Assembly: GCA_951406725.2 (NCBI GenBank) | Contig: OX597835.1 | Location: 16,554,001 to 16,618,000 of the forward strand | Direction of reading: 5' to 3' | Length of the DNA stretch: 64,000 nucleotides | DNA from: Octopus vulgaris | Lineage: Eukaryota | Part shown: positions 4,701 to 20,751 of the stretch, piece by piece | Position numbering within the stretch: position 1 is the stretch's first letter | Layout of the letters: each line of letters opens with the position of its first letter | Notes under the pieces: model-generated | The model's database searches: none | What the model saw: only the letters and a program-made list of their open reading frames with translations | What the model was told of the DNA's origin: nothing | Position numbers and translations under genes: made by a program

Positions 4701-5613
4701 GTTCTAAGCTGATATCAATTATTTTCCTGTACATACATAAATATATACACACATGTATGCCCGTCATTGGTTGGTAGTCAGTATTGGCTTGCTTATTATA
4801 CCAACTGTAAGCTGGAGGTTTAGCAAAAAAGAGACAGATAATACTAGACTTCAATATTGTATTTGAAAAATTCAGTCCTGCTCTGCAGCACTTTGAGCAA
4901 ATGTCTTCTACTTATAGCCTTGGGTTGACCAAAGCCTTGCGAGTAGATTTGGTGGATGGAAACTGAAATAAGCCTTTCATATACACGTGTAGCTGTATCT
5001 TTGTCCTGACATCAAGTGATGGTTGTAAATAAGCACCACTGTCATACAAGCGAGGTTGTTAGTTTCCAGTCATCTGTGGAAAACATGTCCAAATATTGTT
5101 AGGAAACCGGTGAGGGTTGGGACAGGGAGAGCTTCCAGCCATAGAAAATCTACCTCAACAAATCACCATCGGAGCCAAGTAAGCATGAAAAAGCAGACAT
5201 TAAATAATGATTATTATTATTATTATTATTATTATTACTACTAACCTCAACTTGCTTCAGAAGGATTCTTCCACCCCTCTTGTTCTGATATTTCATGAAC
5301 TTCTCAGCATGTTCTTTCTCTTCTTCAGATCTTTTCTGAAAGAATTTGTACAACCCTTTCAGGGCGACATCATCGCGATCAAAGTAAAATGCCTGAAAAG
5401 TTAAAGAAACAACAATAAATTAATCAAATGGAGATTCCTTTTACGTATTTCAACATAATTTTCTTCAACTCTTCCGGTGCCAACCTGCCTAAAACCAAAC
5501 CTGAGAATTCAAAGTGGTTGTGTTTAGATTTAAAAATTCAGTTACCAGGGAATAGAATACATGCTAAAAATAAGAAACCATTTCTAAAACATCTAAGAAT
5601 CTTGTAGAGGAAC

Positions 5614-17300: not shown

Positions 17301-19302
17301 TGCGCGCATGTATGTATATTTTGAGAGAGCTAACTGAATACTACATACATATCATTGCTATTATGTTAAACCGTTGTATGTCCAAATTGGGCCAAAATGC
17401 GTTTTTCTTTTTTTGGGGTTTACAATATTCAATTTTGCTTGCAATAGCTGGTTGCTTTGGTCAAACTATCGTATCTCCAACTGCCTCAGATGCCAACGGT
17501 TTGGCATTTTCCAAAGGTGTGTAGTAAATGGCACATACGACAGGTGCAACGATATGTACATTCACCATTCATAATTTTTATTCAAGAGTACATTATCATG
17601 TATATATATATATATTTACACACACACACATATATATATCAGGTAAGGTGAAAAGATTATCTATTCACAAGATAAGCTTAACGAATACGTGAAGTAGTTG
17701 ACGAGTTGAAATGGAAATTAAGTGAAATATAGAGATAAGGTCGACAAACAGATAACCCTGAGATACGATTCGGGTTGATATATAAATAGAAGACAGGTTG
17801 TTGATATATATATATATATGAGAGAGAGGGTGCTCTCCACACAGACTTTGTTTCCTCATAACTTACAGAAAAATTGATGTTTGATGTAGACTAAAGCATG
17901 TTTGTAGGAAATTTCTTTCTCATAAAGTTATGTGGAAACAACGTCAGAGGAGGACGGGGTGCACAATTGTGTAGTTATGCATATATATTGCACACACATC
18001 TCTTTTTTTGGCATCGTTGCATGGTGAGAATAGAATTACAAATAATGTAGGGCATAGTGCACCAAAAACAGCAATTTGTATGGTTGGCTATATTTCAGCA
18101 TCGCAGGTCAACTATTCTGCAAGAAGAAGAATAAAACAATAAATACTCGAGTACGTACTCGTACCCGTTGTGATTTTTCGGTTGAGGAAACTCCAAAGGA
18201 GAGCTGAACAGCCGAAGGTCCTCAGATAAGGAACCTATCTCTTCATGTAAGGGTTTTGGCCCTCAACTCTTAAAAGCAGAAAAATCGCAAGGGTGTGCTT
18301 GTGTGCGCGCGCCAAAAAAACACCTCCAGTACCAAGTTTTCTTTCTCTTTTTGCCAGAATCGTAACCAAAGTCACTCGAAACAGACATTTTCTAAAAGAG
18401 ACTACAGCTTTGGTGTTCAAGATAATTTCGGACTCTATTCTACAGGAATGCCATATAATATATATTATTGGTAGTGATGGTGACTGGGGGAAGAGGAGGT
18501 GGAAGATATAGCTGTGTAATAGAATAGTATAGGGTGTATGAGGGGTAGATTGAGGAGGAGTGAAAGCAACGACAGAGGAACAGAGAGAATAGACTGAGAA
18601 GGTTAATAGTCGGGTGGAGAGAAATAGATAATGGCGGGAGAAGATCAAGAATAGACAGAAAGATGTCTTATTTAGCACACCACACTTATATTTATATTTA
18701 TCTGTAGACACACACGCATATATGTATATAAATATATTTAGGTATACCTCAACTTACGCTGTTTCGAGTTACGTTTTTTTTTCTCTCGAATAACGTCGTC
18801 TTTATAAGAAACCAATGGAAAAAAATAAACCAACTGCACTCTCAATCTCAGTGATCATGTTTAAAAACATTTTTATTTATATCTGATCTATATCTAAATT
18901 TTGTTCTATCCTCCTCTTTCTCTCTCTCCTCACACAAATATACACGCAGAGGCATACCTCAACTTACGTCGGTAATTATTTCCAAACATTTTATATTTTT
19001 GAAAGCACATAAAAACCGATAATGAAGTGGAAAATCAAATGCAATACATGTGAAAATACGGAGAAACCATCTATTAAAAACGGAGATAAGCTAATAGAGG
19101 CTTTTTTAAAAATAGATTTTTCGTGTGAGGCTGTTTGTCCGCATCAAGTCGCATGGCTTGGAGGAAATAATTACCGACGTAAGTTGAGGTATGCCTCTGC
19201 GTGTATATTTGTGTGAGGGGAGAGAGCGAGAGGAGGATAGAATAAAATTTAGATATAGATCAGGTGTGAGAGATAACGATGGTAGATAAGGGTTAGAGAG
19301 AA

Positions 19303-19493: not shown

Positions 19494-19988
19494 GAGAGAT
19501 AAATAAAAGAGAGTATCCTTGAGTAAAAGCACAGTTCGACCAATTTGAAATCAGCGATCTTTTTCGTTACATAATCTACTACACACTGTCACATAATAGC
19601 AGATGCTTGTGTACAAAAAGCACCCAATATGTTATTATATATTAAATTGCGCACTAAGCAACTCTGAGAAGGTAGGTAATTGGTTAAACGCATCTGTACT
19701 GAAACGGAAGGGAAAAAAAAAACCTCAAAGCATTTAACATTTATATATATATATGATGATTTCATTTGAATGAAACAGTTCTAGTCCTGTAGAAGCTCCT
19801 TCTACAAAATAAATTAATTTACTCTGCTATGTATTGAGTACCTTATTTACTGTGGTTAACCCCGACTCAACCCGGGACCTACATATAAATATATATGTGT
19901 GTGTATATATATTGTTCAATATCCTTTTTGTTTTCTTTAAGGTTGTTGCTCTGACACGCATCTTCTTTCATAGTGTGTCTAGCAACCA

Positions 19989-20034
<46 letters not shown>

Positions 20035-20399
20035 TGGCTGCTAGACACACTATGAAAGCAGATGCGTGTCAGAGCAACAACCTTAAAGAATACAAAAAGG
20101 ATATTGAACAATATATAATAATGGACTGATGTCGAAGCAAAATATATTCCTAACATGGAAAGCAATATATATATACGTTAAATCAAGACTAGTAATTAAT
20201 TCAAAAGTAGTAATTTAGAAACGGATTATAGTAATTAAATAATAAAGCAAGGTAATTAGTAACTAATTAAGAGTGGTTTTGTGTTCTTACTTACCATGGA
20301 TTGGTAGACATAGGAAGCATACATTTCCATGTTAATTTGGCGATTGATGCCAGCTTCGGAATCCTCGTGGAAATTTTGGCGTGGGTTACTGTCGCACAT
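1626..20399 (-). CDS. FTH1: Ferritin A (soma/heavy-M type), spliced CDS join(20399-20295, 5392-5246, 3743-3618, 1763-1626), 171 aa
   Basis: Manual splicing with GT-AG phase-0 introns gives [35 protein letters not shown]|[49 protein letters not shown]|[42 protein letters not shown]|[45 protein letters not shown]. Ferroxidase residues E25, Y32, E59, E60, H63, E105 and Q139 are present. No signal peptide. The symbol denotes homology only. Confidence 0.95.
3618..3743 (-). CDS. Ferritin A exon 3 (126 nt)
   Basis: tttctcAG acceptor, translation KPDNDDWG...[17 protein letters not shown] donor. Confidence 0.96.
5246..5392 (-). CDS. Ferritin A exon 2 (147 nt)
   Basis: ttttcAG acceptor, translation [11 protein letters not shown]...[19 protein letters not shown] donor. 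Overlaps ORF 5150..5353. Confidence 0.96.
5535..5787 (-). pseudogene. Decayed duplicate of the ferritin A exon 4 3' half plus 3'UTR, inside intron 1
   Basis: Collinear with about 1445-1688. For example CTTGGTGCATTCTTGTAAGTAAAAGTGAGTTTAGCTTTCA is shared exactly. Translates as [19 protein letters not shown]. Confidence 0.9.
7545..10829 (-). pseudogene. Probable decayed cGAS-like receptor (Mab-21/cGLR nucleotidyltransferase) pseudogene interrupted by SINEs
   Basis: Frameshifted motifs in the expected order on the minus strand: TG(S)..[18 protein letters not shown] (10590-10510), YGLV.AL(K)C and CWLPAA/RE*IH (9832-9744), Y..KVLLF..WLCE (8756-8709), [18 protein letters not shown] (8120-8060). Pattern recognition only, no search run. 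Confidence 0.5.
7654..8053 (-). mobile_element. SINE/LINE-tail family 3 (GCGTTAGGAAGGGCATCCAGC... ending in (GAT)n)
   Basis: Repeated at about 4469-4690, 8784-9120, 9160-9680, 13504-13785, 14193-14440, 57620-57897 and 62081-62280. Internal tandem TTTTACGTGCCACC units and a short TTAATA TSD. Confidence 0.8.
12921..13303 (-). mobile_element. tRNA-derived SINE family 4 with a 12-bp TSD
   Basis: Head GTGGAGACGCAATGGCCCAGTGGTTAGG...GGTTTCGATTCC. TAGAAAGGTAAT at 12909-12920 and 13304-13315. Confidence 0.85.
15342..15564. repeat. Fold-back with about 51-bp arms, inserted in (TA)n (Penelope-like)
   Basis: 15342-15392 is the reverse complement of 15514-15564 with 1 mismatch. Confidence 0.75.
18883..19263. 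repeat. Inverted repeat with about 100-bp arms (DNA-transposon-derived)
   Basis: 18883-18983 pairs with 19163-19263 and contains a Tc1/pogo-like GGCATACCTCAACTTACG. Confidence 0.8.
19906..20117. repeat. Near-perfect palindrome with a (TA)n centre
   Basis: Arms of about 85 bp with 3 mismatches around a self-complementary TA tract. Confidence 0.9.
20295..20399 (-). CDS. Ferritin A exon 1 (coding part, 35 codons)
   Basis: ATG at 20399, translation [10 protein letters not shown]...YVYQSM, followed by a GTAAGT donor. Confidence 0.95.
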
Positions 20400-20692
20400 T
20401 TTTGTCGGTTTCTTGGTTCCTTAACTAATTCTTTGATTGAGAACACTTCGATCTCTTTTTTTACCTTAAATCGCTAGGATTCTAATAAAGGTGACGGCAA
20501 AAGTAATTAATGTTGGTTGATTGAAAAAACAAAATTTTAAATAAAAACTGCGATTATTTAAAATTAAGAACTTTTAAAAACTGGAAAACTGAAAAGTTAA
20601 TTTTCTTTTTTTTATATATATTTATATATAAAAAGGAAGGAAAAATAAGAATTATTAATTAAAAGCGTTTTGCAAAGTATGGTTAAGAATAT

Positions 20693-20720
20693 GTCCGTAC
20701 GTTCACTGACGCAGCTAGAC
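20693..20720 (-). promoter_or_regulatory. Iron-responsive element (IRE) in the ferritin A 5'UTR
   Basis: Sense RNA GUCU-AGC-UGCGU-CAGUGA-ACGUA-C-GGAC: CAGUGN loop, 5-bp upper stem, ferritin-type internal loop with bulged C. Lies about 10 nt from the predicted cap. Confidence 0.93.
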
Positions 20721-20751
20721 TATTTCTTATGCCGAGCTAACGCAACGGTGC

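Follow-up and report, generated by a model that had tools for sequence, protein, structure and literature searches.

Positions 18151-18306 of the window, which is the whole 64,000-nt stretch of Octopus vulgaris DNA analysed here, had been predicted to encode a multibranch RNA that is specific to the + strand and antisense to ferritin A. The question raised by this locus is whether such an RNA exists or whether the pairings have another source. We conclude that the 156 nt are probably a composite of two repeats, in which a relic of a HERO-type LINE end, likely functionless here, was likely inserted between the inner repeats of a foldback element, and that the LINE family carries a motif predicted to be a hammerhead with its blocks in the order S-G-C. 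The site is located within the ferritin intron that follows exon 1:

20295-20399, minus strand: ferritin coding exon 1 (PDB ferritin match, E 7e-15)
5255-5392, minus strand: next ferritin coding exon

The ferritin context of the original prediction was therefore right, whereas its structured + strand RNA was not supported; the retroelement core at this site reads on the minus strand, which is sense to ferritin.

The helices can be drawn on the + strand of 18151-18306 with the coordinates and pairings that had been claimed:

P1a, + strand: 7 pairs, 3 of them G·U
P1b, + strand: 7 pairs, 2 of them G·U
P1c, + strand: 12 pairs, 1 of them G·U
P2, + strand: 8 pairs, 1 of them G·U
P3, + strand: 4 pairs, no G·U
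P4, + strand: 11 pairs, 3 of them G·U
P5, 18224-18228 with 18236-18240: 5 Watson-Crick pairs

A recount of P1a to P4 gave 10 G·U in 49 pairs, in agreement with the roughly ten that had been reported. The statement that the structure matches no named family also held, as a search of the window with Rfam covariance models gave nothing at the gathering threshold (two chance matches, E 7.7-9.7), and a tRNA scan found nothing.

Compared with shuffled sequences, the whole 156 nt folded better than most on both strands, more so on the + strand (-51.5 kcal/mol, z -3.16, with 2 of 200 shuffles equally good) than on the minus strand (z -2.23, 4 of 200). The three-way-junction core, 18180-18268, taken by itself without P1, folded no better than shuffles (z -0.94 on the + strand and -1.2 on the minus strand), which indicates that the folding signal comes from P1c. 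Pair probabilities were 0.96-1.0 for P1c, about 0.8 for P2 and P3, 0.11-0.63 for P4, 0.26-0.64 for P1a and 0.13-0.15 for P1b. A z of -3.16 or lower was reached by 16 of 450 fixed 156-nt tile-strands of the window, in a scan that skipped simple repeats and was noisy, with 15 shuffles per tile. Of 3439 positions sampled, 7 had a flank helix like P1c, and these represent 4 distinct sites, so that P1c at a given site is more than chance.

The G·U pairs had been taken as a sign of strand specificity and of RNA-level selection on the + strand, and neither reading was borne out. The minimum free energy structures contained 7 G·U in 53 pairs on the + strand and 6 in 49 on the minus strand, and shuffles of the + strand composition averaged 6.6, so the numbers are at chance level on both strands. 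The argument is also circular, because a drawn structure may contain G·U and never A·C. Five of the ten G·U pairs are in P1a and P1b, with pair probabilities of 0.13-0.64.

To identify the sequences that make up the site, we searched the genome with 18100-18460, which returned 20 matches among 20 candidates: the locus itself, 14 to the core and 5 to 18392-18460. The 14 core matches span 18180/18187-18272 at 75-83% identity, and the family they represent has at least 714 candidates (40 scored), whose copies have one fixed and one variable end. The match corresponds to the following feature:

18188-18272, minus strand, maybe up to about 18180: decayed terminal fragment of a HERO-type RLE LINE of family A (75-83% genome matches, with longer copies that contain an RLE-type ORF end)

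Read on the minus strand, longer family A copies proceed from a broken ORF through a 3' UTR to the fixed end, and the window retains about the last 85 nt of the LINE. The open frame of one family A locus (L076) matches the C-terminal 110-118 amino acids of RT proteins of fish and lancelet (E 2e-19 and 6e-14), and family A loci align with residues 764-1062 of the protein P0072 at 42-59% identity; family B is 69-74% identical to P0072 and thereby far closer to it than family A. A single decayed family A frame found nothing useful in a large protein collection, Pfam or PDB, and the identity was obtained through sister families, which the L076 frame finds in the genome. Sister family D carries RVT_1, and its protein has 125 homologues of about 1,000-1,200 amino acids. 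The layout is that of RLE non-LTR retrotransposons (R2 group), with an RT followed by a C-terminal restriction-like nuclease region; the RT domain is seen in family D, and the evidence from family A is its C-terminal region alone. By sequence homology, then, the core is derived from an RLE-type non-LTR retrotransposon. An LTR or SINE origin of the 400-nt match was excluded, as the copies continue into the RLE-type ORF.

We take the element to be a member of the HERO clade by likeness. As in that clade, a single ORF encodes the RT with a C-terminal Cys/His knuckle and PD..E-type nuclease region after it, relatives are found in lancelet, lamprey and fish, and the copies have a fixed 3' end and variable 5' truncation. 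The lancelet and fish homologues agree with this assignment, and the RLE and host range given in passages of PMC9004415 fit the name.

The sequences that flank the relic were found to belong to a different repeat:

18011-18076, no strand assigned: left terminal inverted repeat of a foldback (MITE-like) element, to which the right arm and four other copies align in reverse complement
18398-18452, no strand assigned: right terminal inverted repeat of the foldback element (5 of the 20 genome matches)
18165-18179, no strand assigned: inner inverted repeat, 5' arm (P1c), likely from the foldback host
18279-18293, no strand assigned: inner inverted repeat, 3' arm (P1c)

The terminal repeats are imperfect and common to four other loci, which also hold nested inner inverted repeats. 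Terminal inverted repeats, several copies and no coding capacity are the features of MITE or foldback DNA elements, and the host resembles these in its length of about 440 nt, its long imperfect terminal inverted repeats, its nested inner repeats and its absence of an ORF. The P1c arms align with the inner arms at three of the loci, with a similarity that is short and A/T-rich; the exact two-arm pattern of the inner repeat gave no match. P1 lies outside the retroelement part, and P1c is best read as a DNA palindrome. From these alignments, its origin in the inner arms of the foldback element is likely. The 85-nt LINE end, in minus-strand orientation, would have been inserted between the inner inverted repeats, and the foldback arms would supply P1c and most of the folding signal.

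P1c and P2 might instead have arisen after the insertion by a local inverted duplication, through a template switch at a quasi-palindrome. Apart from a 10-nt gap, 18160-18187 is matched in reverse complement by 18261-18297, and the 5' strand of P2 mirrors a variant that is private to the window copy and one other locus (L002). Both arms, including the first bases of P2, nevertheless resemble the inner inverted repeats of other foldback copies, and we regard the duplication as improbable.

We then asked whether the + strand fold is retained by relatives. In 83 rows of the core family, the majority letters are unpaired on the + strand at 4 of 8 positions of P2 and at 2 of 11 positions of P4, and P5 is not present in the majority. 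For the alternative pairing that had been suggested as a switch, the majority of these rows likewise gives no support at 4 of its 8 positions. The 18214-18257 G·U of the window is G-C in 40 rows, and the wobble arises from the same change that removes G12 on the minus strand. One family A copy and two family B copies held 9, 8 and 6 of the 11 P4 pairs, and six copies of families D, E and F held 4-6. The expected conservation of the + strand helices among genomic copies was thus not seen, as P2, P4 and P5 are not retained in relatives.

A last defence of the fold would be that this one copy was co-opted, with the fold of the + strand or of the ferritin pre-mRNA strand selected here. P1c and P2 have 20 paired positions with 2 G·U only, and several private changes of the window copy improve P2 and P4 and strengthen the + strand fold. 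In the orthologue found in a run with another organism label (X8), one of the two substitutions turns an A-U pair into G·U at 18153 and so keeps the pair. Against these points, the other substitution disrupts a G-C pair of P2; the 2 substitutions in 156 nt compare with 5 in about 578 flanking nt; an allele in run X5 has a 12-nt deletion, 18144-18155, that takes away five of the seven bases in the 5' strand of P1a; and, as described above, the core folds no better than shuffles and 16 of the 450 tiles fold equally well. Runs X2 and X6 did not cover the locus. On these few data the variation at the locus looks like neutral decay, and co-option is very improbable. Neither covariation nor constraint among homologues, the mark of a functional antisense ncRNA, was found, and a stand-alone undescribed ncRNA obtained no support from the relatives, the orthologue or the allele. 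An IRES was not supported either.

The reading as a composite of two repeats leads to the LINE families, in which the conserved structure is on the minus strand, the sense strand of the element. Five LINE families of the genome (A, B, D, E and F) share the letters of the hammerhead core, NUH, GAAA and CUGAnGA, in the order S-G-C, and three single copies (C, D2 and G) also carry the shared strand order downstream of the ORF. This order is strand y, a hairpin, strand x, the 5' strand of stem III with U-H, the 5' strand of stem I, the partner of x, GAAA, the 3' strands of stems III and I, CUGAnGA, and the partner of y. Of 32 copies tried, 27 could be anchored, and majorities were taken from 24 copies of the five families, with the three single copies excluded.

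At the family level, stem I is paired at 25 of 25 pairs, with changes on both sides at 5 of 5 positions and a swapped-family control of 0.49; helix IIb is paired at 46 of 50, with both-side changes at 10 of 10 and a control of 0.45, although the IIb fit of family E is unstable. Stem III (20 of 20 pairs, both-side changes at 2 of 4, control 0.80) and helix IIa (24 of 25, 3 of 5, 0.81) have weak controls, and for all these figures the 5' strands were positioned for maximal pairing. IIa includes the invariant G-C11.1 pair, with the G supplied by the upstream strand x, and IIb begins at the base after A9. CUGAnGA is the majority in families A, B, D and F and is found in 2 of 4 family E copies. Except for one C-A, the A15.1-U16.1 pair occurs in all 27 anchored copies; H17 is A, C or U in 25 of the 27, and positions 10.1/11.1 are C/C or U/C in all five families.

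The canonical stem II, in which the strand that follows A9 would pair with the one that precedes G12, is absent; each of these two strands pairs with a separate upstream strand, so that a four-way junction takes the place of stem II. Stems I and III are pseudoknots. A descriptor of the motif, composed after the sequences were seen, gave 14 matches in 1.31 Mb, all at LINE ends (10 in family D, 2 in A and 2 in F by site signature), and none in three shuffles. Rfam searches of three loci with better-kept copies found no ribozyme family among 49 matches up to E 10. We consider it probable that the family motif self-cleaves at the predicted NUH site.

Further structures were observed around the motif in individual families. 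The loop of the junction hairpin often contains a 6-nt palindrome in families A, B, E and F (L084, L085, L175 and L174), which by its sequence could permit loop-loop dimerisation, and family D has a GAAA tetraloop. At the fixed 3' end of families A and D, the last bases are the complement of those that come just behind the predicted cut, and they are similar to the 3' strand of stem I; they could, judging by this complementarity, compete with stem I or close a post-cut domain. The 3' UTR of family B (L085 and others) has a tRNA-like stretch with a T-loop motif upstream of the ribozyme region.

The closest known system appears to be type SGC. According to Eckert et al. 2023 (PMC10085705), type-SGC hammerheads (HRIMA-1 and variants) come from metatranscriptomes, with none recovered in that study from genomes of known organisms, and the words "Hero" and "octopus" are absent from its main text. 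The LINE motif agrees with type SGC, as presented there, in the block order of site, GAAA and CUGAnGA, in stems I and III being pseudoknots, and in a 5-bp stem I with a short linker to the strand before GAAA. The difference is in stem II. In type SGC the strand that follows CUGAnGA forms it with the one that precedes GAAA, whereas in the LINE motif these two strands pair with two different upstream strands around a hairpin. The LINE motif would thus work like type SGC, and we do not file it as a member, as block C is interrupted. The open literature, including passages of PMC12222951 and PMC4758252, yielded no description of a hammerhead in HERO or of the split topology.

The window copy corresponds to the downstream half only of a type-SGC arrangement, and its core fragment represents the stretch that follows the predicted hammerhead cut:

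18270-18272, minus strand: U16.1-H17 position, with the predicted scissile bond between 18271 and 18270, by analogy with the hammerhead core
18250-18262, minus strand: block G, with the 3' strand of helix IIa (18258-18262), GAAA with G12 changed to A at 18257, and the 3' strand of stem III with one change (18252)
18209-18230, minus strand: block C, with the 3' strand of stem I (18226-18230, one change), an intact CUGAnGA (18219-18225) and the 3' strand of IIb (18209-18218)
18191-18201, either strand, Watson-Crick: P3 of the + strand drawing, the mirror image of a small hairpin near the fixed end of the family

Strand y, the hairpin, strand x and the 5' strand of stem III are missing, the 5' strand of stem I is one base short, and stems I and III are broken; the 3' strand of IIb has no partner strand. 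Because the upstream half and G12 are absent, the window copy cannot form the family fold, and it is predicted from its sequence to be inactive as a ribozyme. The hammerhead descriptor had no match in the window on either strand. The copy is among the more diverged, with 59 of 81 positions equal to the column majority against a median of 88%, a figure that is partly an effect of alignment and sampling. A search for a window-like subfamily with a compensatory IIb change gave 4 matches only, the window included. A canonical type I-III hammerhead was rejected for both strands of the window, as the motif order does not fit. The original suggestion of a structured retroelement leader, possibly ribozyme-like, therefore stood as to the retroelement and the ribozyme-like region and fell as to the strand, the helices and the inclusion of P1. 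In the young sister family D, the 5' leader and the ORF come immediately after the homologous post-cut segment.

The layout of the copies bears on what the motif may do for the element. Family D is young (1,114 exact 25-mer matches in the genome), and among its first 30 copies, which were surveyed for their ends, 28 extend to a point some 110 nt beyond the predicted cut, where 27 of them end. Their 5' ends are scattered, and one copy of the 30 begins no more than 10 nt from the cut; with six duplicates counted once, the same holds for about 2 of the 24 independent family A loci other than the window copy. No pile-up of 5' ends at the predicted cut was seen in either family. The homology of the window to four long copies stops, in local alignment, at 18272, 2 nt upstream of the predicted cut, and this is suggestive only.

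Two family D loci continue past +110 into the leader and the ORF N-terminus. In a set of 12 leader-bearing family D copies, which includes these two loci, the leader is joined directly to the fixed end (the +110 segment) in all 12. Nine of these copies extend back past the cut into the 3' UTR or the ORF end (8 by BLAST and 1 by eye), and three start inside the +110 segment. Seven long family D copies extend to the locus edge. Six of them exceed one unit and continue across some 3.9 kb to +110, and four of these six carry the core at each end; the seventh ends within the ORF. This read-through layout was established in family D and not in family A, to which the window copy belongs. The longer-than-unit copies fit two schemes. 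The reverse transcriptase may travel round a ring whose ends meet at the site, from a priming point 110 nt further on, or it may change strands on a linear RNA with redundant ends.

In the first case, the ribozyme would cut a unit-length RNA of about 3.9 kb from a transcript with the motif at both ends, and the fold would keep the two RNA ends together for rejoining as a ring. Reverse transcription would begin about 90-110 nt past the joint, go round and halt at variable points, and would have left the window copy as a very short product, without the upstream half and G12. From the copy sequences, the chance that the RNA ends are joined into a ring is about even. The most far-reaching reading, tentatively held at slightly under even, is that HERO-type LINEs use a hammerhead split at A9/10.1 to excise their RNA, form a ring and prime inside it, with the window as a dead 85-nt product that ends at the cut site.

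The same relic and ribozyme could also operate on a linear template with no ring. The RNA would have redundant ends of about 110 nt and the reverse transcriptase would pass the site by homologous strand transfer or by jumping between templates, or it would copy transcripts that read through tandem copies. This accounts equally for the longer-than-unit family D copies; L165/L194 and L166 show template jumps, and two family A loci have short tandem ends. It is harder to reconcile with the junction at the site, which is one seamless join in the 8 copies that have a neighbouring BLAST match, as simple end-to-end jumping should duplicate the 110-nt segment, and with the predicted fold, which bridges both ends. 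A linear template is a possibility to which we give roughly one chance in three.

Both templates assume cleavage, and the motif may instead be hammerhead-derived and non-cutting, a recognition structure for the RT or endonuclease of the element that sets the priming point. Most copies pass through the site, 5' ends show no pile-up there, and the canonical stem II cannot form; the break at A9/10.1 violates the block rule (PMC10085705), so the fold could be a protein-binding structure that has ceased to cut. With 27 of 30 family D copies ending some 110 nt beyond the site, a signal for priming must lie close by. The catalytic letters, U16.1, an H17 of A, C or U, and G-C11.1 are, on the other hand, kept in five families with differing stems, which is hard to explain without catalysis, and we think a non-cutting motif unlikely.

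Tandem arrangements were also noted in family A. Two unlinked loci (L162 on C13 and L163 on C27) each end in a tandem array of three units, about 120-127 nt long and similarly joined, that all contain the site, GAAA and CUGAnGA; these are possibly a mini-element or repeated template jumps. Seven near-identical short family A fragments with common flanks (L045-L050, G000:C29:24.24-24.55 Mb) represent a local segmental or tandem duplication.

Penelope-like elements and retrozymes contain circularly permuted type I/III hammerheads and have a GIY-YIG endonuclease or none. The LINE families resemble them in a hammerhead within a terminal repeat, a partial tandem copy upstream of a full unit and a possible circular RNA, and differ from them in being RLE LINEs with a non-circular, split topology. 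The locus itself is of little weight: a decayed retroelement end within a DNA palindrome mimics a strand-specific structured RNA. If the family motif cuts, it would extend hammerhead topology beyond the six published block permutations, place a non-circularly permuted hammerhead in animal genomes, and provide a LINE clade with a ring-shaped or end-joined template, which would explain a fixed internal 3' end without poly(A) together with partial 5' self-repeats. A circular-template route, if true, would be unexpected for LINEs.

Other features were observed in the window. About 300 nt upstream of the ferritin ATG, a hairpin at 20688-20724 (minus strand) has a CAGUGA loop, a 5-bp upper stem and an unpaired C; it looks like an iron-responsive element and folds in that shape with a z of -1.1. 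Rfam had no match to this hairpin up to E 1. Further ferritin last-exon sequences are located at about 41100 (minus strand), where a second ferritin gene lies around 41.1-42 kb, and on the minus strand at about 5760 and 1660-1760, where there are two last exons of similar sequence; by their sequence, the extra last exons suggest tandem ferritin copies or a duplicated exon. The same ferritin intron contains two long DNA palindromes (foldback elements) at 18940-19245 and 19920-20115, one of them with an (AT)n centre.
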